Positions 1,675-30,716 of a stretch of DNA of 64,000 nucleotides are shown piece by piece. The translations under genes and the position numbers were made by a program. This stretch comes from a virus (Duplodnaviria > Heunggongvirae > Uroviricota > Caudoviricetes). The notes beneath the pieces were generated by a model. That model made no database searches. It had not been told where the DNA came from and was given only the letters and a program-made list of their open reading frames with translations. The stretch lies in IMG/VR virus record IMGVR_UViG_2923350032_000001, positions 750-64,749 of that record, one strand, 5' to 3'. Numbering within the stretch: position 1 is the first letter of the stretch; every line of letters starts with the position of its first letter.

Positions 1675-2805
1675 TTAATTACTGACAGTTTCAGGTTTCG
1701 GGAAACTGAACAGTAAATCACGGTAGTATTCGTATTGTTTCTGGCGCAACTCGATTTCACGCGGGAGACCTTCAGTGATGGAGTTGGTCAGGGTGTCGAA
1801 TTTATCGAGTATTTCGACAATGCGAGCTTGTTCTTCTGAAGGTGGTACAGGTATTGGGAATTTTAAAAACATTGGTCGACGAAGTGAGGTAACCGATGAA
1901 CTTACTGATGCTTTTTGAATATAGGTAAAAAAATATGCTGTTATATAGTGATATACAAATCGCGGATTCATAAATGCATTTGGGACAATACGATATGCTC
2001 TCTGATGCAAAGCATATTTACCTTTAGCATAATGAAATACCTTCCCCACCCCGGCGCCATCTCCAGCCGTAATGATTGCTGTTTCATCAAAATCAAATAC
2101 ATTTAACTTTAATGGTTCACGTCCACGTGCATAAAAAATATATTTGCCATGTTCTATAGCATCTTGCGTATCATGGTTACCTGTTCCTATAACAGCCACT
2201 TCCCCCAAAGTCTTCCACTCAACCTCACCCTCTTTAAAACTCAACAACTGGTCGCGATAGTAATTGTACTGTTTTTTACGCATGTTAAGCTCAGCGGTAA
2301 GCTCAGCGGTAAGTGCAGTAAATTTATCCAGAATCCGAACGATTTCAGACTGGATGGCAAGGGATTTTTCTGGGGTATCCGGGCAGGGGATTGGTATCAA
2401 AATAGGTGATACATCACGTGGATAAACATGCGGAACACCACCACCACTCTTAAACTCATGGAGTTGTTGTTGCATATTCATCAAAAAATGATAGCAATAT
2501 CGTGGTAACAAAATATTATGAGGTTTTACAGTAAATGCATCCGATACGAAAATTGGTTCCTCCCACCAACTAACGAATCCCGCATACGCACCAGAACCTG
2601 CGATAACAATTGTTTGTCCGTCGCGATTACTAGTATTATGATAATAAGCTGGTGTACGTCCGCCAGCGACTACGGGGATGGTTCCATCAATAACATCTTT
2701 TTTTGTAATTGATGTGCCTCGCTTTAGTTCAGCTATACTGCCTAGTGTTTTCCACTCAACCTCAACCCCATCCAGCAATTTTTCCAGATAACTCATCTCG
2801 CTCAT
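1675..2805 (-). CDS. hsdS: Type I RM specificity subunit HsdS
   Basis: 376-aa ORF between hsdM and hsdR with two TRD-like halves and central conserved TAEL-TAEL repeat; overlaps hsdM stop. Confidence 0.9.
2289..2312. repeat. two tandem 12-bp units (GCTCAGCGGTAA) encoding TAEL-TAEL in the hsdS central region
   Basis: direct repeat read in sequence; a degenerate third unit follows. Confidence 0.8.
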
Positions 2806-4364
2806 TTCTGCACCTCGCAGCCTTCAATTTCAGCCACAATCGCATCAATATCTTTGCGCAACTGGTCGATTTTGCTGACCGTGATTTTCAGCTCTGCATT
2901 CAACTCAGCGATATCGATAATTTCGCGAGTATCTTTCGCTTCAACATAGCTGCTCACCGACAGGTTATAGTCATTAGCGACAACGGCTTCAAACGCGACA
3001 GATTTCGCCAGATGGGCAACATCTTCCTTGCTGGCAAATACCTGCATAATCTGTTCGATATGAGCATCGGTCAGAATGTTGTTGTTAGTCTCTTTTTTGA
3101 ACAGTTCGCTGGCATCAATAAACTGAACTTTGGTATCCGTTTTATGTTTAGACAGCACCAGAATATTGACGGCAATAGTGGTGCCAAAGAACAGATTCGG
3201 TGCCAGTGAAATCACGGTTTCGACATAGTTATTATCAACCAGATACTGACGGATTTTCTGCTCCGCGCCGCCACGGTAAAAAATACCCGGGAAGCAAACA
3301 ATCGCAGCACGACCTTTGGCAGAAAGATAGTTCAGCGCATGTAGTACAAAGGCGAAGTCAGCTTTTGATTTGGGGGCCAGAACGCCAGCCGGGGCAAAAC
3401 GCTCATCGTTAATCAGAGTCGGGTCATCGCTGCCAATCCATTTCACCGAATACGGCGGGTTAGAAACGATGGCATCAAACGGTTTTTCATCTCTGAAGTG
3501 CGGTTCAGTCAGCGTATTGCCCAGCTTGATATCAAACTTGTCGTAGTTGATGTTGTGCAAAAACATGTTCATACGCGCCAGGTTATAGGTCGTATGGTTG
3601 ATTTCCTGACCAAAAAAACCTTCTTCGATGATATGGTCATCAAACTGTTTTTTAGCCTGCAACAACAGCGAACCGGAGCCTGCTGCCGGGTCGTAGATTT
3701 TGTTAACGTGGGTCTGCCCGTGCATAGCCAGTTGTGCAATCAGCTTAGAGACGTGCTGCGGTGTAAAGAACTCGCCGCCTGACTTACCGGCATTCGCCGC
3801 ATAGTTAGAAATCAGGAACTCATAGGCGTCACCGAACAGGTCAATCTGATGTTCGTGGAAGTCACCAAGTTTTAGCCCTTCAACCCCTTTCAGAACTGCA
3901 GCCAGGCGGGCATTTTTATCTTTAACGGTGTTACCCAGGCGGTTACTGGTAGTATCGAAATCAGCAAACAAACCTTTGATGTCAGCTTCTGAAGGGTAAC
4001 CGTAAGCAGAACTTTCGATAGCAACGAAGATGCTGTTTAAATCCGCATTCAGTCTGTCATTGGTATTTGCTTTCGCAGCTACGTTGCAGAAAAGCTGACT
4101 GGGGTAGATGAAGTAACCTTTGGTTTTGATGGCATCGTCTTTAATGTCATCAGTAATTACGCTGTCATCCAGTTTCGCATAACAGATACTGTCATCACCG
4201 GCTTCAATATAGCTGGAAAAATTTTCGCTGATAAAACGGTAAAAAAGCGCGCCCAAAACGTACTGCTTAAAATCCCATCCATCGACTGAACCCCTGACAT
4301 CGTTAGCAATTTGCCAGATTTGACGATGAAGCTCTGCACGTTGTTGAATACTTGTCATTTTCAT
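2802..4364 (-). CDS. hsdM: Type I RM N6-adenine DNA methyltransferase HsdM
   Basis: 520-aa ORF with NPPY catalytic motif ([10 protein letters not shown]) and AdoMet-binding region ([10 protein letters not shown]). Confidence 0.92.
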
Positions 4365-4540
4365 CCACTTATTTCAGGTTTATGTAATTGGCGGTGATTC
4401 TACAGCAACTTGGATGCTTTAGCAGTTCGGACATTAGGCTACGAATGACCTGCCTAGAGGTTTGTTAAGCCGCAAAGTGCTGGTGCTTTATGTCTGTGAA
4501 GTTTATAATTGTGTACACATAACGAGTACACGAGGTGTTT

Positions 4541-4762
4541 ATGCAATCCATTAACTTCCGTACCGCGCGCGGCAACCTTTCTGAAGTGCTCAACAATGTT
4601 GAGGCCGGGGAAGAGGTTGAAATCACCCGCAGAGGCCGTGAGCCAGCAGTAATTGTCAGCAAGGCTACTTTCGAAGCCTACAAAAAAGCGGCGCTGGATG
4701 CTGAATTTGCATCCCTGTTTGACACCCTGGACTCCACCAACAAGGAACTGGTTAACCGATAA
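4541..4762 (+). CDS. phd: Phd antitoxin (prevent host death)
   Basis: 73-aa product [32 protein letters not shown]... recognised as P1 Phd; stop overlaps doc start. Confidence 0.95.
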
Positions 4763-5142
4763 TGAGGCATATATCACCGGAAGAACTTATTGCGCTTCAT
4801 GATGCGAATATAAACCGCTACGGCGGCCTGCCGGGAATGTCTGATCCGGGTAGGGCAGAGGCCATTATCGGGAGAGTTCAGGCCAGAGTTGCCTACGAAG
4901 AGATCACCGACCTTTTCGAAGTCTCCGCCACCTACCTGGTGGCTACAGCGAGAGGGCATATATTCAATGATGCCAATAAGCGTACCGCGCTAAACAGTGC
5001 GCTGTTATTTCTACGCCGTAACGGGGTGCAGGTATTTGATTCACCTGAACTGGCAGACCTTACCGTAGGGGCTGCGACCGGAGAGATATCTGTATCTTCT
5101 GTCGCCGCCACGTTACGTAGATTGTATGGTTCTGCGGAGTAG
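4762..5142 (+). CDS. doc: Doc toxin (death on curing, Fic-fold kinase)
   Basis: 126-aa product [25 protein letters not shown]... recognised as P1 Doc. Confidence 0.95.
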
Positions 5143-5146
5143 ATTA

Positions 5147-5326
5147 ATGGCACGCAAATACAACAAATTGTCCCGTGAAGCGTTAAAGATGCTTCTTGAT
5201 GGCGTGAGTCGCCGCAAGGTAAAGCAATACCTGGTTGGTAAGCAAATTGGTGCTAGGACCGCTATTGCTGTGTTATGCCGTCAGGAAATGGTTGTGCTTA
5301 AACAGAGAATGCCGGGCAGCAGATAA
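5147..5326 (+). CDS. hypothetical small basic protein downstream of doc
   Basis: ORF 5126-5326, internal ATG at 5147; position matches the P1 post-doc region. Confidence 0.25.
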   Translation: MARKYNKLSREALKMLLDGVSRRKVKQYLVGKQIGARTAIAVLCRQEMVVLKQRMPGSR

Positions 5327-5353
5327 AGCCCAATCAGTGATGAAAGGTGTGAT

Positions 5354-6397
5354 GTGAAAGCCATTATTACTCCCTTTGTACAAAAAGAGCTTGGCGTCGC
5401 CACATTCAAAGTGGATCAGGAAGTCAGAAAGCTGGTGGAGGCTGGCCGTAAATTTATTATGGAGCCGGTGCCGCGTGAGTTAATCGAGCACATGGACGAC
5501 GGCCTCGTTGTTTCCGAGCAAACTATGGCAACAAATGAGGCGTTGCAGCCGTTTTTTAACAGCGATGAACTGTTTCGCCGTATTGGTGGAATTGACTCGC
5601 TGGTGGCGTGGTTGCGCAGGAAAGAGGGGCAATGCCAGGCCGCAGATCGTAGTTGGTGTGACAACCATATTGTCCACGCTAAACGAGACAATAGCGCGGT
5701 GTTGCTGTGCTGGCATCACGATAACCATTACCGGATGCGTGGTTTTAATGAGCTGAAAGAAACGCTGCATAATAATCGCGTTAACTGGATACTGGATGTC
5801 GCCCGTCAGGAAATGGGCCTTTCAAATAGCCATGATTTAAGTATTCAGGAGCTGTGCTGGTGGGCTTTCATGCGCAACATGATGCACCTGATGCCGGAAG
5901 AAGTCTGCCGCATATCAATAAATAAGATGAAGGCTGCTCCGCAGGATAGCGGACCTTTGAAAGAGGCGGATATTCGCCCGTATGACGATCGTGCTACAGC
6001 ATATGTTCAGATGATGGAAGAACGCGCCGCGCCGATGCGTGCAAAAGTATGCCCTGTGGATGTTGACTCCGACCCTGGCACGGCGCATTTCAAAATACCA
6101 AAACTGCAATCGCTAAAATTACCCGAGTACATGGACTTTGTTGCTTCCCGTCCGTGCTGTGGATGTGGAGCTGCGGGAGCTGGCGCTCGCATTACGCCTT
6201 ATATCGTTCGTCATAGTCGATTATGCGCGCATGACATTTACGCAATTCCTCTGTGCCAGTCATGCCAGCGTGATATTGAGCGTGACCGCGATAATTGGGA
6301 GAAGACGCACGGCAGGCTGGCGATGCATCAACGATTGTTCTTTGATTACGCGCTTGGAGTCGGCGCTATCACAAGTCACTCGTCGAGCGTTAGATAA
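5354..6397 (+). CDS. hypothetical protein, post-doc region, Cys-rich C-terminus
   Basis: 347-aa ORF with GTG start; position equivalent to pdcB in P1 gene order. Confidence 0.5.
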
Positions 6398-6398
6398 A

Positions 6399-6415
6399 AT
6401 TGCTCTAATGTATTG
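6399..6415 (+). promoter_or_regulatory. C1 operator (ATTGCTCTAATgtaTTg) upstream of lpa
   Basis: match to the 17-bp asymmetric P1 C1 operator consensus ATTGCTCTAATAAATTT. Confidence 0.6.
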
Positions 6416-6485
6416 CTATTTCTTTAATCGAGGGTATTATATTCGTCGTTGATTAGTTGACATGGGCTAATCAGTAGGTGACAGG

Positions 6486-6938
6486 ATGTTACTTAACTGG
6501 CAGGGACGCCACTTCATGGAAATAAATCACTCACGAATTACATCGTATGAGATTGCGGATTACATGATTCGCACTAAATCTCTTCTATCAGCGAAAGAAC
6601 TCGCAGCAATCCTTGAAAAGGAATACCCGCATCTGGATGTCGATAAGCGCGATGTTTATCTGCGCTTAAAGGCTATCGCTGTGTCTAAGTATTCGTCTGT
6701 TTTGATTGATGACAGTACACGCCCACGTAGATTTCAGATCCACTCTCTGAATCCTGAATTCTTTCGCCGTAGCCGCGCTCCGCGCCGGTTTGATGAAAAA
6801 CTCCAGAACGAACTCTATATGACGCAGGACGAAAAGGAACGCCGGGAGCACCAGCCTTGGGTAATGGCGCGTCAACTTTTCAATAAGGTGGCCCGTCAGC
6901 ACCGTCATTACGGTAATGCCACATCCGCACGTATCTGA
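6486..6938 (+). CDS. lpa: late promoter activator Lpa-like protein (true start may be the internal Met at about 6516)
   Basis: 150-aa ORF directly upstream of pacA and downstream of a C1 operator, as in P1. Confidence 0.55.
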   Translation: MLLNWQGRHFMEINHSRITSYEIADYMIRTKSLLSAKELAAILEKEYPHLDVDKRDVYLRLKAIAVSKYSSVLIDDSTRPRRFQIHSLNPEFFRRSRAPRRFDEKLQNELYMTQDEKERREHQPWVMARQLFNKVARQHRHYGNATSARI

Positions 6939-7023
6939 TTGATTGCTTGCCCGTTCCGGGCCTTTTGACATGTGACTTTCGTTACCCTCGCGTCAAAAAG
7001 AGTTTTTACGAAAGGAAGCATAA

Positions 7024-8217
7024 GTGACCTGGGACGATCACAAGAAGAATTTTGCTCGCCTGGCGCGAGATGGTGGTTACACCATCGCACAGTATGCCGC
7101 CGAGTTTAATCTTAACCCTAATACCGCACGTCGTTATCTCCGTGCCTTCAAAGAAGACTCCAGGACTGCGGACAGCCGCAAGCCAAATAAGCCAGTCAGG
7201 AAGCCACTAAAAAGCATGATCATTGATCACTCTAATGATCAACATGCAGGTGATCATATTGCGGCTGAAATAGCGGAAAAACAGAGAGTTAATGCCGTTA
7301 TCAGTGCCGCAGTCGAGAATGCGAAGCGCCAAAATAAGCGCATAAATGATCGTTCAGATGATCATGACGTGATCACCCGCGCCCACCGGACCTTACGTGA
7401 TCGCCTGGAACGCGACACCCTGGATGATGATGGTGAACGCTTTGAATTCGAAGCTGGCGATTACCTGATAGATAACGTTGAAGCGCGGAAGGCCGCGCGC
7501 GCTATGTTGCGTCGGTCCGGGGCCGATGTTCTGGAAACCACTCTTCTTGAAAAGTCTCTTTCTCATCTCCTTATGCTGGAGAACGCCAGGGATACGTGTA
7601 TTCGCCTGGTGCAGGAAATGCGCGATCAGCAAAAAGACGATGATGAAGGTACTCCGCCTGAATACCGTATCGCGAGCATGCTAAACAGCTGTTCCGCGCA
7701 GATAAGCAGCCTGATCAACACCATTTACAGCATCCGGAATAACTATCGAAAAGAAAGCCGGGAGGCGGAAAAGCACGCTTTGTCTATGGGGCAAGCTGGC
7801 ATTGTTAAGCTGGCATACGAACGAAAGCGTGAAAATAACTGGTCAGTGCTGGAAGCAGCTGAATTCATCGAGGCGCATGGCGGGAAAGTGCCGCCCCTGA
7901 TGCTGGAGCAAATCAAAGCCGATCTGCGTGCTCCTAAGACCAATACCGATGATGAGGAAAGGCAAACAGCCGTCGGTGGCCCTTCTCTTGAAGATCTGGA
8001 CAAAGTTGCGCGAGAACGGGCCGCCAACCGCCGCGCCGATGCCGCATTGTGGATTGAGCAGCGTAGGGAAGAAATCGCCGATATCGTTGATACAGGCGGT
8101 TATGGAGATGTTGATACTGAAGGTGTATCAAACGACCCATGGCTGGAACAAGACCTGGACGAAGACGAGGAGGAAGACGAAGAAGTTACCCGCAAGCTAT
8201 ACGGGGATGATGATTAA
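7024..8217 (+). CDS. pacA: terminase small subunit / pac-recognition protein PacA
   Basis: 397-aa ORF with GTG start; contains the pac site; acidic C-terminus; recognised as P1 PacA. Confidence 0.92.
7208..7375. other. P1-type pac packaging site: four TGATCA hexamers (7208-7247) and three TGATCR hexamers (7347-7375) flanking the cleavage region
   Basis: hexamers with embedded GATC Dam sites read directly in sequence inside pacA. Confidence 0.9.
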
Positions 8218-9701
8218 TGGCCAGAAGTTGCGTAACGGATCCACGTTGGCGCGAGCTGGTGGCGCTATATCGTTATGACTGGATTGCTGCCGCTGATGTT
8301 TTGTTCGGCAAAACACCTACCTGGCAGCAGGATCTGATTATTGAGTCTGTGCAGGAACAGGGTAGCAAGACATCTGTTTCGTCTGGTCACGGTACCGGGA
8401 AATCAGACATGACTTCTATCATGATCATGTTGTTCATAATCATGTATCCCGGTGCCCGCGCCATTATCGTTGCGAACAAAATTCAGCAGGTAATGACCGG
8501 TATATTCAAGTACATCAAGATAAACTGGGCTACTGCCACCAGCCGTTTCCCATGGCTTGCTGATTATTTTGTTCTGACAGAAACCGCTTTCTATGAGGTT
8601 ACAGGTAAAGGTGTATGGACTGTAGTACCGAAGGGCTTTCGTCTGGGAAGTGAAGAAGCTCTCGCCGGTGAACACGCAGATCATCTTCTGTATATTATCG
8701 ATGAAGCCTCCGGTGTCAGTGATAGAGCTTTCGGTATCATCACCGGTGCTCTTACCGGACAGGATAACCGCATCTTATTACTGTCACAGCCTACACGCCC
8801 AAGCGGCTATTTCTACGATACACACCATAAACTGGCCAAGCGTCCTGGTAACCCTGATGGCGTTTATACGGCGATCACGCTTAACAGTGAGGAATCACCG
8901 TTGGTAACGCCAGCATTTATCAAAATGAAGCTGGCGGAGTACGGCGGGCGTGATAACCCTATGTACATGATTAAGGTACGCGGCCTATTCCCTAAATCAC
9001 AGGATGGCTTCCTTCTTGGACGTGATGAGGTTGAACGTGCAACGCGGCGGAAAGTCAAGATTGCCAAAGGATGGGGCTGGCTTGCATGTGTGGACGTTGC
9101 TGGTGGTACGGGACGGGATAAGTCCGTTATCAATATCATGATGGTGTCCGGCCAGCGAAATAAACGCCGTGTAATCAACTATCGAATGCTGGAATACACA
9201 GACGTTACAGAAACGCAGCTTGCCGCCAAAATTTTCGCAGAATGTAATCCTGAGCGATTCCCAAATATCACCATAGCGATAGACGGCGATGGGCTGGGTA
9301 AAGCAACGGCGGATCTGATGTACGAGTATTATGGTATTACCGTACAGCGTATACGCTGGGGTAAAAAGATGCATAGCCGTGAAGATAAGAGCCTGTACTT
9401 TGATAAACGTGCTTATGCCAACGTTCAAGCCGCAGAGGCCGTAAAATCTGGTCGTATGAGACTGGATAAGGGTAATGAAACTATTGAGGAAGCGTCGAAA
9501 ATCCCTGTAGGGATTAACTCCGCAGGTCAATGGAAGGTGATGAGTAAGGAGGATATGAAGAAAAAACTCAACCTGCACTCACCAGACCATTGGGATACAT
9601 ATTGTTTCGCTATGCTGGCGGATTATGTTCCCCAGGATGAAGTGCTTAGCGTCGAAGACGAAGCGCAGGTTGATGAAGCTCTGGCATGGCTTAATGAATG
9701 A
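8217..9701 (+). CDS. pacB: terminase large subunit PacB
   Basis: 494-aa ORF overlapping pacA stop; recognised as P1 PacB. Confidence 0.92.
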
Positions 9702-9703
9702 AT

Positions 9704-9720
9704 ATTTGCTCTAATAAATT
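9704..9720 (+). promoter_or_regulatory. C1 operator (ATTTGCTCTAATAAATT) heading the c4-icd-ant-like module
   Basis: consensus match immediately after pacB stop. Confidence 0.65.
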
Positions 9721-9789
9721 GTGTTTTTTAACTGCCGATGTTACATTGAACCTGACCTCTTGCGCCTTGAGGCATTTTCGGTTTATGCT

Positions 9790-9885
9790 TATCAGGCACC
9801 TCATTAAAACGGGTGCCGGGATTGAGACCCCGGATAATGCAAAAGGCGACACAGACGCCAAAAGCGTCTTTTTTTTGTGTCATGC
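9790..9885 (+). ncRNA. candidate c4-like antisense immunity RNA ending at hairpin GACGCcaaaaGCGTC + T-run
   Basis: structured untranslated leader between operator and icd-like ORF; terminator-like hairpin at 9862-9885; segments complementary to sequence near the icd RBS. Confidence 0.3.
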
Positions 9886-10061
9886 CATCGCACAGCCATA
9901 CGTAGCGTTTAGCTCAGAGATCAATGGTAGTGCTGGCTGGGCTGCCGAAAGGCAGGCCGGTTCCCTTTTGCGCCGGTAGTCTCAACCCAGTCAGTGCTAC
10001 CGCCATTGAGATTGAGACCTCACGCGGTAGCTCCTTAAATTAGCAAAAGGAGGCTGCCATT

Positions 10062-10283
10062 GTGGCTACTATCCCTACCCCTGCTCATCCTGAATTTATC
10101 TGGCGCTTTTACTCCTGCCAAAAACGTCACTATCACTTCGTTATTGCACCGACAGAAGATGAGGCACGTTCTCAGCTTCCTGACGCCCCATGTATTTTCT
10201 CTGCCCGTTTTTCCACTGATTCACGCAATTCTCTCAGTTACTGGTGCCTCCCTGTTAACGCTTCTGCTCAGGAGGGACTATGA
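10062..10283 (+). CDS. icd: Icd-like protein (interference with cell division)
   Basis: 73-aa ORF (EFIWRFYSCQKRHYHFVIAPTEDEARSQLPD...) overlapping start of downstream ant-like gene; paralog of ORF 23512-23733. Confidence 0.7.
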   Translation: MATIPTPAHPEFIWRFYSCQKRHYHFVIAPTEDEARSQLPDAPCIFSARFSTDSRNSLSYWCLPVNASAQEGL

Positions 10284-11392
10284 GAACATCGTTAGTTACC
10301 CGTGAAGAGATGATCGAGGCAATTGAACAGCACACTGCCTGTATCAGTACCAGGGATATACCTGGCGTTATTGCCAACTACTTCATGATCACCAAACAAC
10401 TTTACCGGAGAAAGGACAAGAACGCGGTTCACCGTATCCTGCTGTCTGATATCCGCGAATACCTGCTCGAACAGGGGCATCTGAATTACGCAACCGTCGC
10501 AGCCGAAGCACGCAAGGAGGCACACAGAATGAAAGCAACTAACGTTAAATCAGAAAAAATTTATGCACCTTCAGTTCAGGAATCGGAACTGGTGGTTGTT
10601 CAGAATCAGCCGGATGAAATTCCCGTTCTGGAATGGCAGGGAGTACGTGTCGTGACAACCGAAACTCTTGCTAGAGGGTATGGGGTCGATGAAGCCAATA
10701 TTCGCAACAATTTGTCTCGCAACCTTGACCGCTTTGAAGAAGGTAAGCATTACTTTCTTCTAACAGGTTTAAAATTAAGAGAATTTAAGAACAGAGTAAC
10801 CGGAAGTTACTCTGTTGGTAAGAACGCCAGAAGCCTTACACTCTGGACAGAGCGCGGCGCTGCACGCATGTCTAAGATCGTGGACACAAATGAAGCATGG
10901 GCATTCTTTGAAAAACTGGAAGACAGCTACTTCCGACAAAAAGAACAGCAACCGATCGCAATCCCCCAGACGCTTCCTGAAGCCCTACGCCTGGCTGCCG
11001 AACTGGCTGAACAAAAGCAGCTTCTGGAACAGAAAGCCCACCAGCTAAATCAGCAGCTGGTGGCCGCCGCTCCTAAGGTCGATTTTGCCGACCGGGTATC
11101 AGTAGCTAAAGGGATCCTGATTGGGAATTTTGCAAAGGTTGTTGGACTTAAGCAAAACGCGCTGTTTGCCTGGTTACGGGAGAACGGCATTCTGATAGCG
11201 TCCGGCGGGCGTAAAAATGTGCCGTTCCAGCAGTACATAAACGCCGGATATTTCACAGTGAAAGAAGTGGTGCTGGATGATGAAGATGGCTACCAGATAC
11301 GGCTGACGCCCCAATTAACGGGGAAAGGACAACAGTGGTTGACGCGTAAACTGCTCGATGCTGGCTTGTTAAAACCGGTGGCGGCTGAATAA
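10280..11392 (+). CDS. antirepressor-like protein with Bro-N-like middle region and KilA-C/ANT-type C-terminal domain
   Basis: 370-aa ORF; C-terminal 130 aa closely parallel the C-terminus of KilA (25415-26215). Confidence 0.7.
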   Translation: MRTSLVTREEMIEAIEQHTACISTRDIPGVIANYFMITKQLYRRKDKNAVHRILLSDIREYLLEQGHLNYATVAAEARKEAHRMKATNVKSEKIYAPSVQESELVVVQNQPDEIPVLEWQGVRVVTTETLARGYGVDEANIRNNLSRNLDRFEEGKHYFLLTGLKLREFKNRVTGSYSVGKNARSLTLWTERGAARMSKIVDTNEAWAFFEKLEDSYFRQKEQQPIAIPQTLPEALRLAAELAEQKQLLEQKAHQLNQQLVAAAPKVDFADRVSVAKGILIGNFAKVVGLKQNALFAWLRENGILIASGGRKNVPFQQYINAGYFTVKEVVLDDEDGYQIRLTPQLTGKGQQWLTRKLLDAGLLKPVAAE

Positions 11393-12596: not shown

Positions 12597-12835
12597 AATT
12601 ATGCCTCACTGTATTGACAACACAGAGCCTGAAGCTCTGACCTACTGTTTCACCCATGATCCATGCTGGGGTAATCTAACAACATTGCGCTGTGTGTAAG
12701 ATGAGCAATGCATAGCTGTAATGCCGTTGTATAAGGTTTCCCTGTTTGCTCATTTCCTTCTGAGCCGCTCTACAACGCTGAAGACACATTAAATAGTGAA
12801 TCCAAAGTCGTATTACGTAACGGCGGCAAAACTAT

Positions 12836-27092: not shown

Positions 27093-27109
27093 GATTGCTC
27101 TAATCTGGA
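27093..27109 (+). promoter_or_regulatory. C1 operator half-site-like sequence
   Basis: ATTGCTCTAATctggag directly after repL stop. Confidence 0.35.
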
Positions 27110-27140
27110 GTCACCTGGCGTTTTCAGTTTGAGGTCGGAG

Positions 27141-27386
27141 ATGCAATCTGATTTTTTACAGTTAGCGATCGCTTTTGCAGGATATGTTTGTATTGGCTTC
27201 TGTGTATACATGATCAGCCGAAAAATGCTTGTCGATATCGACCGCAAAGAACAAGCAGAGGAGATCTTAGTATGGATTTTCTTTGGCGCGGTCTGGCCAT
27301 TAGGGATCATGTTTGCTGCAACATTTCTTCTGATGTGGATATTCACCCTTCCAGGTGATTTCTATAGAAAAAAAGCCAGACATTGA
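27141..27386 (+). CDS. small predicted membrane protein (two hydrophobic helices)
   Basis: MQSDFLQLAIAFAGYVCIGFCVYMISRK...ILVWIFFGAVWPLGIMFAATFLLMWIF. Confidence 0.35.
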   Translation: MQSDFLQLAIAFAGYVCIGFCVYMISRKMLVDIDRKEQAEEILVWIFFGAVWPLGIMFAATFLLMWIFTLPGDFYRKKARH

Positions 27387-27568
27387 TACAATCGTTGCGG
27401 GTGCTTGAGGCTATCTGCTTCAGGCATTACCCGAAAAGCAGATAGAAGAAAGCCCCAGATAACATTACGCGTCCTGCAAGACGCTTAACATTAATCTGAG
27501 GCCATATCTATGCTTAGCATACGTAGATTAGCCTCTTACCGACCAAAAGGTCAAGGAGAAGCAGGCTA

Positions 27569-27724
27569 TGAAGCAGCAAAAAGCGATGTTAATCGCTCTG
27601 ATCGTCATCTGTTTAACCGTCATTGTGACGGCACTGGTAACGAGGAAAGACCTCTGCGAGGTACGAATCCGAACCGGCCAGACGGAGGTCACTGTCTTCA
27701 CAGCCTACGAATCTGAAAGGTAAG
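27569..27724 (+). CDS. hok: Hok/Gef-family type I toxin (51 aa)
   Basis: MKQQKAMLIALIVICLTVIVTALVTRKDLCEVRIRTGQTEVTVFTAYESER fits the Hok/Gef pattern; overlapping mok-like frame 27510-27716. Confidence 0.8.
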
Positions 27725-27744
27725 AGACCTGGCGGGGAGAGATC

Positions 27745-29086
27745 CCATAAGCGCTAACTTAAGGGTTGAACCATCTGAAGAATGCGACGCCTCGGTGCCT
27801 CGTTAAGACGATGCCTCGCGTTCTTCAATTGCGTTTTGTAGGCTGTCAGGGATACTGTCCCACGAATGGCCACCTGTAAGCTCCAGATGACCATTTTTGT
27901 TATTCTCCACAACGAGTTAGTTCTTCTTTTCGGATCCGGCACTTCTGGGGGGGAAATCCAGCGATGGCTGGATTATGTCGTCAATTAAAAATGCGGCGAG
28001 TAGATTAGCAAATATCCACGCTTTCGCGAGTTCAGGTTCCTTTGCACGCAAAGCATCCAGGTGCAGCAAACTTTTGAGCCGCTTAAAAGCCAGTTCAATT
28101 TGCCATCGCAGACGGTAACAATCAGCCACTTGCTCTGCTGAATATTCATCTTCCGGTAATGATGTTAGCAATAGCACATGGCCCGCTGCTTCCAGCGTTT
28201 CCGCCTGAACTACTCGTCCTTTTCGACGATTCTCGCTGAGCAGTCGGGTTTTACTGATTAATGCTTTTTCGGGAGGAAGTGATACGGCAATGAGACGTGC
28301 CGGAAAGGGAGCTCCGGCTTTTTTATTACCTGAATTGCCTATCATTACAGTGGTTTCACCGTTCTTACCGCAATCCAGCCCGCGCAGAAAACCCATCATG
28401 TCAAAGCGCATTCCTTCTGCAGTTAACCAGCGCAATCCTCGCCAGTGAACCCGGACGATATAATCAGCTTCTCCAAAAGCAAGTGAGCGGATACATTCGG
28501 GACGCGAACCGAATCCCCGGTCAGCAATGCGTATCTCGTCTGCCGTTTGCGCAAATCGGTCCAGCCGTTCAGCGTCTCTGCTGTCGGTTAGCTCAAAATC
28601 AGTGAACTGACAGGTATGAGGATCATATCCCATATGTAGTCGCCATTCAGCGCTGCCGCCCCCGGGCGCACTGATTGCTGTTCCATCGACAAGACGCAAT
28701 CTCTTTCCGCTTGTACAACCCGTAACTGCGGCGCGTACAGCAAGTGTTTGTGCGGCAAGTATGCCAAACCAGTCGGCGGCATTCCGCAGCCGCTTCAGGA
28801 GAGCCACGTCAGATAATGTTGCAACGTCATGGAGCTGAGCCCATGCAGTGACTTCACGTAATGACATCCCCCCGGGGCCGTAAGCCAGCCCCAGACGTAG
28901 CAGAGTTGCAGCATCACGAATTTCGCGGCGGCGGGTTAGAGCCCCGGCATTACGTGCCGAAGTATCCAGTTCTTCGGGCTTACCAATATGGGCCAGAATT
29001 GCTGACCAGTTATCGTGAGAGTAATTCATCGGCACGTTAAATCATATCAGGCGTAATACCACAACCCTTAAGTTAGCGCTTATGGG
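27745..29086 (-). mobile_element. IS186 (IS4 family)
   Basis: terminal inverted repeats CCCATAAGCGCTAACTTAAGGGTTG at both ends; 370-aa transposase inside. Confidence 0.88.
27917..29029 (-). CDS. IS186 transposase
   Basis: MNYSHDNWSAILAHIGKPEELDTSARNAGALTRRR... Confidence 0.9.
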   Translation of the reverse strand: MNYSHDNWSAILAHIGKPEELDTSARNAGALTRRREIRDAATLLRLGLAYGPGGMSLREVTAWAQLHDVATLSDVALLKRLRNAADWFGILAAQTLAVRAAVTGCTSGKRLRLVDGTAISAPGGGSAEWRLHMGYDPHTCQFTDFELTDSRDAERLDRFAQTADEIRIADRGFGSRPECIRSLAFGEADYIVRVHWRGLRWLTAEGMRFDMMGFLRGLDCGKNGETTVMIGNSGNKKAGAPFPARLIAVSLPPEKALISKTRLLSENRRKGRVVQAETLEAAGHVLLLTSLPEDEYSAEQVADCYRLRWQIELAFKRLKSLLHLDALRAKEPELAKAWIFANLLAAFLIDDIIQPSLDFPPRSAGSEKKN

Positions 29087-29426
29087 AGTGATCCCCGCCA
29101 CTCTTCGTGTGTCTGGTAACCTCAATGCACCCTTTTCTCCCCAATAGTGTAAAACACAATGAAGTAGAAGGAGTTATTTCACATCATGCAAAGATTCAGA
29201 CCATATCTCCCAATAGCCTTCGCGACATGATGACTTTCAGAAATATCTAGCTGTTAACAAAATTCCATACTTGCTTTGCTAATACCACCTAGATTATATA
29301 TGGAAAAATACACCTAAAACTTAAACAAATTATATCCACAACAAACATCCATCTATTAGGATTAAAATTAATTTAATAATAAATAATACAACACCGGTTC
29401 ATTTTCTAACAAACCGGTGGGCACCA

Positions 29427-30419
29427 TTATTGGAATAACTTACTGATTACATTAAAAACATTAAGGGCGTTACTTGCCACACTAGACATCTTGGCTGAAT
29501 TTTTTTCGATTGAGTCAAGAACACTTTCGACTTCCGATAAAGTTCTTCTGCTATCTGCATCTTTTCCTGAGTCTATCGCATCTTTAATTGCAGATATAGC
29601 AGACTCTAAATTCTCCTTAAACTCACCTGTCGTCTCATCCTTCAAGAGAAGTTCTAACTCTTGTTTAAGTTTTTCCAATGATGCTCTTTTCTCATCAGTT
29701 TTACTAATCTTCCCTGAATAACTGACACAAACACATTCTCTTTTATTGCAGACAGGACAACCATTTAGATAATAACTTTCAAACGCCTCGCCAAGATCAT
29801 CATCTTTAAAAATAATCCCCCATAAAGAAAACAACCAAGCATATATATCAGCACACTCTTCATGAAGATTTTCTTTGTTGTAATTTTTATCTTCAATTGA
29901 TTTAGCATAAGCCTCTTGCAACTCACCCAACTCTTCGAATAACCTGGATGAATGATAAAACCCACCAAAAGTAGACCAAATGGTTCTATTCGACGGATAG
30001 ATGTCATTAATCATTCGTGGCGCATAAGGCGGAAATTGCATAGGTTTAATAGCGTTATATTTATTGAAAAGCTCATCTTTAATTCCTTTTGCGCTTCTTA
30101 TTTTCTCTGGCTTTCTGTGTGTTTGAGAACAGGAACAAGGCGCCCCTAAGCAATAAGGACAGCAACTAGGAAATTTTTTATAAAATGCTTCCTGTGGTTG
30201 TATTTCAAGTTTATCACAGATTGCAAAAAGCCAAGACAATGCTTCTATATAGGTATTTTTTAATAATTCTTTATCCTGATTACCATCACGAATAAACTCA
30301 CGTGTTAAATAAGCTGTTTTCCTTGTCAGATAAGAGTACATATACTCAAATGATTTTTCTTCATTTTTTTTGCTGTAAATACCTACAATAATATTGCTCA
30401 TATCATTGATACGTAACAT
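29427..30419 (-). CDS. tandem MazG-like (all-alpha NTP pyrophosphohydrolase-like) protein with two Cys-rich zinc-ribbon-like motifs
   Basis: AT-rich ORF; start likely Met with AAGAGG RBS at about 30419; FEELGELQEAYAKSIEDKNYNKENLHEECADIYAWLFSL; CCPYCLGAPCSC and CPVCNKRECVC. Confidence 0.55.
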   Translation of the reverse strand: MLRINDMSNIIVGIYSKKNEEKSFEYMYSYLTRKTAYLTREFIRDGNQDKELLKNTYIEALSWLFAICDKLEIQPQEAFYKKFPSCCPYCLGAPCSCSQTHRKPEKIRSAKGIKDELFNKYNAIKPMQFPPYAPRMINDIYPSNRTIWSTFGGFYHSSRLFEELGELQEAYAKSIEDKNYNKENLHEECADIYAWLFSLWGIIFKDDDLGEAFESYYLNGCPVCNKRECVCVSYSGKISKTDEKRASLEKLKQELELLLKDETTGEFKENLESAISAIKDAIDSGKDADSRRTLSEVESVLDSIEKNSAKMSSVASNALNVFNVISKLFQ

Positions 30420-30716
30420 GACATTCCTCTTAAATAAGCCAATACTTCCTAGAACCATATATGCTTCGACAAAGATTAACGGACATCTTGCCTTCACAAA
30501 CTTTGACGCTACATAAATTTAACCATGTGCATACTAAATATTTAAGGTAGAAAAGTATAGGAGTATTTATTAATAGGTAACTGTTAGTTTACACTCACTT
30601 CATACCAGAGTATTTACAAGATGTTATTTTACTCTATTCGCTAGGCGGTGGAATGCGGTTGTATCAAGGGGAGGTAAACCTCCCCCGAAGAAGATTAAAA
30701 GTACAAGGGATAACAC

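Follow-up and report, generated by a model that had tools for sequence, protein, structure and literature searches.

A tandem MazG-like zinc-knuckle protein in the cargo slot of a P1-like phage-plasmid, a candidate nucleotide-pool defence enzyme

The 64,000-nucleotide stretch analysed here (the window) comprises positions 750 to 64,749 of the Caudoviricetes record IMGVR_UViG_2923350032_000001 in IMG/VR, a P1-like phage-plasmid, and carries on its minus strand an AT-rich gene for a tandem MazG-like protein with two cysteine clusters. Our best reading, which we hold at about an even chance of being right, is that the product is a prophage-borne defence enzyme that would attack the nucleotide pool. 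We favour a role in protecting the lysogen because the cassette is mobile and absent from virulent phages, while relatives occupy reported defence hotspots and carry immune-type fusions, and the conserved metal site in one of the two repeats points to a working nucleoside triphosphate (NTP) pyrophosphohydrolase with a single asymmetric site. In this phage-plasmid the gene is a horizontally acquired, self-contained cassette. What was already known is its RefSeq label, 'MazG-like', and the standing of MazG domains as unvalidated defence candidates. The tandem zinc-knuckle family is undescribed: the searchable literature yielded no description of it, its fusions, its operons or its accession, and WP_000944483 is not listed in the DefensePredictor supplement.

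A first-pass annotation, made from the letters alone, had delimited the gene as the open reading frame (ORF) at 29427 to 30497, which the ORF list gives on the minus strand as 356 amino acids (aa) from a GTG. That ORF exists, and its start now moves inward. The likely start codon is the ATG at 30419, giving 330 aa, because a Shine-Dalgarno-like AGAGGA sits 6 nt ahead of it and the RefSeq start agrees. The stretch upstream is probably not translated, the GTG at 30497 merely opening the longest mechanical ORF. The ORF is a genuine gene, with full-length homologues at 31-79% identity alongside 992 cluster representatives.

AlphaFold models the full protein as all-helical, with a predicted local distance difference test (pLDDT) score of 82.7; helices at residues 24-43, 50-70 and 75-82 are echoed by helices at 153-176, 183-203 and 209-216, and a C-terminal bundle follows. 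Residues 12-104 align with residues 143-236 at an hhalign probability of 99% (E 5.9e-18), so the halves are a true duplication that includes the Cys4 knuckle. The first-pass annotation had described two helical segments bearing an EExGE...EE.AD signature; the tandem arrangement holds, and the signature occurs in repeat 2 only. There the sequence reads E162-E163-L-G-E166 and, after a 21-residue gap, E188-C-A-D191, in agreement with the metal-binding motif EExxE(12-28)ExxD, and E162, E163, E166, E188 and D191 are invariant in alignment A1 and kept in 155-160 of 175 relatives (~90-95%). Repeat 1 is without the acidic metal site, having R33, K34, Y37 and R40 opposite E162, E163, E166 and E169; its W63 is conserved. 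The I-Y-P-x-N motif between the repeats is probably a substrate-binding element.

The cysteine motifs had been called zinc-ribbon-like. Two Cys4 clusters are indeed there: among 175 relatives, 155-169 have each of the eight cysteines, the remainder being gaps (~100% of aligned residues). They do not form classical zinc ribbons, which set CxxC knuckles on beta hairpins with a spacer between them: the compact CPxC-x4-CxC arrangement spans 11 residues, the structure model shows no beta strand at the Cys motifs, and no zinc-ribbon Pfam entry matches. Cys4 zinc knuckles are likely, because the four Cys of each motif are nearly invariant. The C-terminal bundle is variable, being missing in short forms, GGDEF fusions and kinase fusions, and it matches generic helical bundles only.

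Profile searches support the MazG-like fold first proposed for the protein. The family profile finds the MazG-like structure 1vmg in the PDB at E 1.4e-4, with 2p06, 5ie9, 2q73 and 2gta weakly, and PHROG 2245, 'nucleoside triphosphate pyrophosphohydrolase', matches at E 4.3e-6; Pfam MazG is matched by 17 of 150 relatives at <=1e-4 (best E 2.9e-15). The protein itself scores 14.5 bits against Pfam MazG (PF03819; E 0.045, residues 185-225 only) and does not reach the gathering threshold of 22 bits; relatives that pass include P0145 (27.1 bits), P0154 (29.1 bits) and the protein of locus L014 (24.0 bits). Dimeric dUTPases are the best fold matches, 5myd at the top, RS21-C6 (DCTPP1) is matched as well, and the matches thus reach every branch of the all-alpha NTP pyrophosphohydrolase superfamily, the four being MazG, HisE, dimeric dUTPase and RS21-C6. 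Foldseek with the full-length model against the PDB was uninformative, with nothing significant (best E 0.67), and Pfam dUTPase_2, the profile of the dimeric dUTPase family, gave no match to the query. The four-helix-bundle core is built from helix hairpins, as in the superfamily. The protein can thus be placed by sequence and profile in the all-alpha NTP pyrophosphohydrolase superfamily, and not strictly in Pfam MazG, among the dimeric dUTPases or with E. coli-type MazG, from which it departs in its repeat 1 without acidic residues, its two Cys4 knuckles and its extra bundle. The signature chemistry of the superfamily we take to be the Mg2+-dependent conversion of an NTP to nucleoside monophosphate (NMP) and pyrophosphate (PPi). 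Direct scans also returned RP854 and DUF4404, both below the Pfam threshold, and chance matches to NCBIfam entries; we used none of these as evidence.

Close relatives form 28 clusters of full-length proteins at 31-100% identity, and an exhaustive profile search returned 992 cluster representatives at E<=1e-3 from bacteria and archaea; a further round of searching, started from a more diverse profile, brought in just two more proteins. Fused domains occur in 21 of the 150 best representatives: TIR in 11, at either terminus, an N-terminal cytidine/dCMP-type deaminase in 4, a C-terminal GGDEF domain in 3 and an N-terminal Ser/Thr kinase in 3. Gene order adds further partners. In Bacteroides and Oscillospiraceae an operon runs from a kinase through a short tandem MazG-zinc protein to a protein with two transmembrane (2TM) helices, with cross-phylum identities of 55% and 40%; its kinase matches PADLOC pVip-kinase/VakA (E 8e-32) and cytidylate-kinase-like Pfam families, the short Bacteroides form has no PADLOC match, and the operon as predicted looks like an undescribed nucleotide-based defence system. 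The Bacteroides copy adjoins a Mob_Pre relaxase gene. Throughout a Pectobacterium/Pantoea subfamily, ~54% identical to the query, the gene is always followed by one for a 245-248-aa 2TM protein, helical in its central part and bearing one transmembrane segment at either terminus, which is a candidate membrane effector with no equivalent in the E. coli window. This combination of a fixed core with variable TIR, deaminase, membrane and cyclase modules reads as the grammar of conflict systems.

The gene's location identifies it as cargo. P1-like IncY phage-plasmids of E. coli match the region at 99.7-100% identity, and phage P1 homology flanks the gene on both sides. On the P1 map the interval from repL/oriL to bplB holds rlfA, rlfB and pmgF; in the window it holds an 81-aa ORF (orf81), hokD, IS421 and the MazG-like ORF instead. 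G+C content is 34.1% in the gene and 34.8% in the island at 29085-30684, compared with 48% in the window and 50.8% in the adjoining structural (tail) genes. The island lies between an IS186-type element on one side, whose end is its left boundary, and bplB with the tail genes on the other, its right boundary falling 33 bp beyond the bplB stop, where P1 homology restarts at 30684. The first-pass annotation had placed the gene as AT-rich cargo in a low-GC island between IS186 and the structural genes, and the comparison with P1 upholds this while identifying rlfA-rlfB-pmgF as what was replaced. The same interval is described as a low-GC variable region ('region 5') of P1-like elements (PMC9603915), and an IS186B/rlf-replacement arrangement has been reported for pSvP1 and pTZ20_1P (PMC6906374). 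P1 RlfA (DUF3800) and RlfB match the candidate defence system PDC-M04A/B of PADLOC (E 1e-95 and 1e-51), so the repL-bplB slot may be a defence hotspot of P1-like elements. The names RlfA and RlfB historically stand for 'replication-linked'.

Complete E. coli genomes show how sparsely the slot is filled in this way: 18 of 5,426 carry the gene, always on a plasmid, and P1-type bplB-pmgG is found in 707, of which the gene is in 18. A tblastn search of 50,697 phage records gave one match, in a filamentous Vibrio prophage of 8 kb whose homologue (29% identity, E 9e-43) is its sole cargo. CTXphi carries ctxAB in the equivalent position. IMG/VR holds 15 loci, 9 of them 100% identical, in a search reaching close relatives only, and at least 3 of the 15 have counterparts located in P2-like or lambdoid prophages. 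Relatives of 54-79% identity sit at P2-like and lambdoid/rac prophage sites and next to prophage DNA methylases, and other members are found on chromosomes or small mobilisable elements, with restriction-modification, Old-like or SIR2-STAND genes as neighbours. Both the P2 int-att interval and the tail-gene region are reported defence hotspots (PMC13586616). Neutral contexts occur too (kdp genes and nrdAB; L010 and L030 are among such loci). In total we examined ~20 neighbourhoods; a scan of genome contigs returned 11 loci. The distribution indicates that the gene travels between unrelated temperate elements (P1-like, P2-like, lambdoid and filamentous) as a single AT-rich cassette.

The cassette brings a ribosome-binding site and a terminator of its own, and the nearest C1 operator is more than 4 kb away, all of which is compatible with expression in the lysogen. 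The operator consensus of P1 C1, ATTGCTCTAATAAATTT, has 15 matches in the window when up to 3 mismatches are allowed, where chance would give 0.39 (for example at 12835, 25329, 42242, 46542 and 62922); these predicted sites confirm a P1-type immunity network, and none of the 15 falls within 4 kb of the gene. The Orlf operator that follows repL in P1 has no counterpart in the window.

From the computed features (the gene, its fold class, the duplication, the conserved residues, the fusions and the contexts) we infer the enzymatic activity, the substrate, the binding of zinc and the defence role, and we envisage the following mechanism. The protein would be a single-chain pseudo-dimer of the MazG/dimeric dUTPase fold with one asymmetric active site, to which repeat 2 would provide the Mg2+-binding EExxE...ExxD residues and repeat 1, a catalytically dead copy, would give the basic residues R33, K34 and R40. 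A Cys4 zinc knuckle, probably structural, would cap each repeat, and the C-terminal four-helix bundle probably serves in oligomerisation or regulation. Such an enzyme would hydrolyse nucleoside triphosphates to NMP and PPi and might starve superinfecting phages of a nucleotide that they need, either a canonical deoxynucleoside triphosphate (dNTP) or a phage-specific or modified one, so that the gene would act as defence or superinfection exclusion on behalf of the lysogen. A cytidine nucleotide is a possible substrate, suggested by the recurrent cytidine/dCMP-type deaminase fusions and the association with a cytidylate-kinase-like kinase. Nucleotide depletion is an established defence strategy, as dCTP deaminase and dGTPase illustrate (bioRxiv 10.1101/2021.04.26.441389), and MazG domains have been predicted, though not validated, to be defensive (PMC13092281; bioRxiv 10.64898/2026.01.15.699771). 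More tentatively, and with less confidence than we place in a defence role as such, we suggest that the E. coli protein may be the stand-alone prototype of a widespread undescribed immune module, to which TIR, deaminase, GGDEF, kinase or 2TM effectors would be joined in various bacteria and archaea. The minimal form of P1, P2 and lambdoid prophages would then protect the lysogen unaided, by selective hydrolysis of a nucleotide required by invading phages (possibly a dNTP of dC type, or a modified one), and would be a new single-gene nucleotide-pool defence of temperate phages.

Several observations sit uneasily with a defence enzyme serving the lysogen. A scan for sigma-70 promoters upstream of the gene passed none; the late operon is upstream of the gene, bplB points the same way, and the hairpin after bplB is without a T-tract. 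Given this orientation and this hairpin, read-through from the late operon could allow expression during lytic growth, which would also fit a role in serving the phage. No PADLOC-DB v2 model matches the protein, LmuB at E 0.018 being a spurious coiled-coil match. The window offers no partner gene, and the IS-free plasmid CP010146 has nothing between hokD and the MazG-like gene; the E. coli version, without partner or effector, would as a constitutive NTPase need some way of avoiding self-toxicity or of being switched on. We speculate that specificity for a nucleotide found only in phages would solve the problem of self-toxicity. Guilt by association rests on the ~20 loci mentioned above, for which there is no statistical background, and the fusions could instead point to the core as a sensor of nucleotides and not the effector. 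Finally, one homologue of 35% identity (P0028) lies directly downstream of nrdA and nrdB, a metabolic context (L030 3769-9643), with a REP-associated transposase-like ORF after it; its apparent link to dNTP metabolism could be real or coincidental. The 177-aa neighbour at that locus was considered as a partner and rejected, since it looks like a REP-associated transposase.

The first-pass annotation had proposed anti-defence or regulatory cargo, noting that phage MazG-like enzymes can deplete nucleotide second messengers. An anti-defence enzyme would break down alarmones or the nucleotides that carry immune signals, among them (p)ppGpp, cyclic nucleotides and TIR products, and so stop abortive-infection systems of the host from firing while P1 grows lytically or establishes itself. 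The phage MazG-like protein Atd1 is a real precedent, hydrolysing (p)ppGpp and protecting against TIR-STING toxicity (bioRxiv 10.1101/2022.06.09.495361), and an intact catalytic site, a position directly downstream of the late structural operon in the same orientation, and the fact that counter-defence genes may also occupy prophage accessory loci are all in keeping with it. The family at large speaks for defence instead. Homologues turn up in 1 of 50,697 phage records and in no virulent phage; TIR, deaminase, GGDEF and kinase fusions and the pairing with a 2TM protein are the architecture of an immune system and not of its inhibitor; members occupy reported prophage defence hotspots; several lie on chromosomes or small mobilisable elements, next to restriction-modification, Old-like and SIR2-STAND genes; and the single-domain Atd1 is a far smaller and simpler protein. 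Anti-defence appears less well supported on this family-wide evidence, and we consider it improbable. An addiction or stringent-response role for the plasmid, for which the adjacent hok and the mazEFG precedent might be invoked, was set aside, as neither hok nor another toxin gene accompanies the homologues.

Less probable again, in our estimate, is a housekeeping role, in which a dUTPase- or dCTPase-like enzyme, encoded in the slot of the 'replication-linked' rlf genes beside repL/oriL, would clean up or balance dNTPs while the element replicates; it might, for instance, prevent dUTP or damaged dNTPs from entering P1 DNA. Dimeric dUTPases are the best fold matches and RS21-C6 (DCTPP1) is another, one relative adjoins the ribonucleotide reductase genes nrdAB, the deaminase fusion resembles the route from dCTP through dCMP to dUMP, and the superfamily is classically termed 'house-cleaning' (Moroz et al. 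2005, cited in PMC9503650). Yet with only 18 of 707 P1-element-bearing complete E. coli genomes carrying the gene, it is dispensable for P1 biology; movement as a single AT-rich cassette among unrelated temperate phages and the missing dUTPase_2 match also tell against this role, and the TIR, GGDEF, kinase and 2TM associations would be unexpected for such an enzyme. The smallest chance goes to a sensor or regulator. Its pseudo-dimeric core would recognise a specific nucleotide that reports infection, perhaps with slow turnover, and would signal through the C-terminal bundle or a fused or partner effector; in the stand-alone E. coli form the output could be oligomerisation or the binding of a host or phage protein, in the manner of dimeric phage dUTPases with the repressor Stl of staphylococcal pathogenicity islands (SaPI). 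A constant core whose additions change from member to member (TIR, deaminase, 2TM partner, GGDEF, kinase) is the usual logic of sensor and effector, the top structural match 5myd is a signalling dimeric dUTPase, and the degenerate repeat leaves a single asymmetric site. What tells against a sensor is that the full catalytic acidic set persists in >90% of members, which argues for real turnover, and that the E. coli protein is without a recognisable effector.

If nucleotide-pool defence proves correct, enzymes of the all-alpha NTP pyrophosphohydrolase fold would be added to the few that starve phages, beside dCTP deaminase, dGTPase and the calcineurin-HAD filaments, in a compact single-gene form shuttling among P1-like, P2-like, lambdoid and even filamentous prophages. 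It would also explain a family of ~1,000 clusters, in which the fusions to TIR, deaminase, GGDEF and kinase domains are unannotated, and would make a defence hotspot of the repL-bplB slot in P1-like phage-plasmids. If anti-defence is true instead, the protein would be an unusually elaborate counter-defence enzyme. In either case it is experimentally tractable, being soluble, 330 aa long and open to clear point mutants.

The neighbours of the gene within the slot are collected with the other features in the table below. IS421 is missing from about half of the gene's carriers, and CP010146 has an IS-free version of otherwise the same cargo, with hokD convergent with the MazG-like gene; we therefore regard IS421 as a later insertion outside the functional unit. 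The terminal repeats of this IS421/IS186 copy are CATAAGCGCTAACTTAAGGGTT, and the insertion lies ~20 bp past hokD; since plasmids that otherwise match exactly, CP010146 for one, are without it, it may truncate the 3' end of the hok mRNA. The 81-aa ORF has no Pfam match. In other P1-like phages a different, unannotated protein of 198-210 aa takes the same position downstream of bplB; those of phages RCS47 and SJ46 have no Pfam or PADLOC matches and no transmembrane segments.

Table. Features of the MazG-like gene and its slot in the window, and positions or contexts of related loci elsewhere.
Feature	Position	Strand	Basis or remark
Window
Coding sequence, tandem MazG-like/zinc-knuckle protein, 330 aa + stop	29427..30419	-	RefSeq WP_000944483.1 'MazG-like family protein'; 100%-identical plasmid NZ_CP091040
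Shine-Dalgarno-like AGAGGA, 6 nt ahead of ATG 30419	30425..30430	-	Read from sequence
In-frame upstream extension from GTG 30497	30420..30497	-	Aligns to no homologue; ribosome-binding site and annotated ATG downstream
Intrinsic-terminator-like hairpin, 12-bp stem then T-rich tail, 8 nt past stop	29392..29419	-	Terminator scan and sequence
Repeat 1, degenerate MazG-like helix hairpin, residues 20-83	30171..30362	-	hhalign, AlphaFold helices, residue conservation
Cys4 knuckle 1, C87-P-Y-C90-x4-C95-x-C97	30129..30161	-	Invariant in A1; 155-157/175 relatives, others gaps
Inter-repeat I-Y-P-x-N motif, residues 140-144	29988..30002	-	Y141 153/175, P142 135/175, N144 147/175 relatives
Repeat 2, putative catalytic MazG-like hairpin, residues 153-217	29769..29963	-	A194-W195 follow the acidic motif
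E162-E163-x-x-E166	29922-29936	-	Repeat 2
E188-x-x-D191	29847-29858	-	Repeat 2
Cys4 knuckle 2, C221-P-V-C224-x4-C229-x-C231	29727..29759	-	Invariant in A1, A2, A3; 168-169/175 relatives
C-terminal four-helix bundle, residues 237-330	29430..29711	-	AlphaFold helices 237-259, 262-284, 287-308, 312-329; pLDDT 62-83
Low-GC cargo segment (34.8% G+C)	29085..30684		With orf81 and hokD substitutes P1 rlfA-rlfB-pmgF
IS421 (IS186 family), between hokD and MazG-like gene	27746..29083		Annotation, alignment, terminal inverted repeats located
hokD toxin gene in cargo island	27568-27723	+	
81-aa ORF with hydrophobic segments, immediately after repL	27141-27386	+	Annotated hypothetical; present in several P1-like elements
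Related loci
P1 rlfA/rlfB	Phage P1 NC_005856 (L002) 4320-5488		Equivalent window slot 27100-30684
198-210-aa slot protein	Phage RCS47 (L026) 2766-3362; phage SJ46 (L027) 2766-3398	-; -	
Kinase, MazG-zinc, 2TM three-gene operon	Bacteroides metagenome-assembled genome (MAG; L017) 9054-11375; Oscillospiraceae MAG (L014) 4563-6872		
2TM partner gene	L007 11080-11826; L023 9069-9806; L022 9077-9823		
Old/GajA/AriA-like ATPase, 586 aa, E 1e-23	L009 7017-8777	-	1.2 kb from stand-alone Celerinatantimonas member
Vibrio filamentous prophage member	Vibrio phage 10N.286.54.E11_PE002A, PQ189347 (L025) 6649-7641		Sole cargo, after gene I/zot
P0002 (79% identity)			P2-like prophage, gpS-gpV interval
P0015			Between P2-type integrase and chromosome (int-att)
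P0003 (78% identity)			rac/lambdoid nin region
P0014, P0017			Lambdoid prophages, after DNA methylase
P0176			Prophage, after C5 methylase and 267-aa ORF
Alphaproteobacterial member			After type I restriction-modification hsdM-hsdS-hsdR
Bacteroidales deaminase fusion			After SIR2-STAND-TPR protein

Among characterised proteins, the closest superfamily members are the MazG-type enzymes (Sulfolobus SSO3215, PDB 1vmg; YpjD, 2gta) and E. coli MazG (3cra). The present protein differs from them in being a single-chain pseudo-dimer, as we predict, with the metal site of repeat 1 lost, a CPxC-x4-CxC knuckle on each repeat and an added bundle; in E. coli MazG both tandem domains are of MazG type, and there are no Cys clusters. 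Dimeric dUTPases (staphylococcal phage Dut, 5myd; Campylobacter jejuni, 1w2y; Leishmania, 2yay) share 5-7% sequence identity with it and are without zinc knuckles, and their substrate specificity is not transferable to it. RS21-C6/DCTPP1 (2oie, 2a3q) is a homo-oligomer of single hairpins, neither tandem nor furnished with zinc knuckles, and the cytidine link that it brings to mind comes for our protein from domain associations only. P1 RlfA/RlfB (PDC-M04; DUF3800 and a partner) occupy the same repL-bplB slot and are unrelated proteins, so the relation is one of position only.

Systems from the conflict between phage and host offer further parallels. Like our protein, Atd1 (bioRxiv 10.1101/2022.06.09.495361) belongs to the MazG superfamily, is carried by phages and acts where phage and host are in conflict. 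It is a small, catalytic-domain-only phage protein acting on (p)ppGpp, whereas the family described here is larger, tandem, zinc-bearing as predicted, nearly missing from phage genome collections and TIR-fused in relatives, the 330-aa E. coli member being itself of several modules. In the PUA-Calcineurin-CE-HAD systems (bioRxiv 10.64898/2026.01.15.699771) MazG rarely replaces calcineurin and is proposed as an NTP-targeting effector; our protein has no PUA or HAD partner. The deaminase fusions and kinase associations of our family recall the kinase-deaminase architecture among nucleotide-depletion defences. The nearest likeness in proposed logic is to the dCTP deaminase and dGTPase defences (bioRxiv 10.1101/2021.04.26.441389), which would share with it the starving of phages for (d)NTPs, achieved there through a different fold and architecture.

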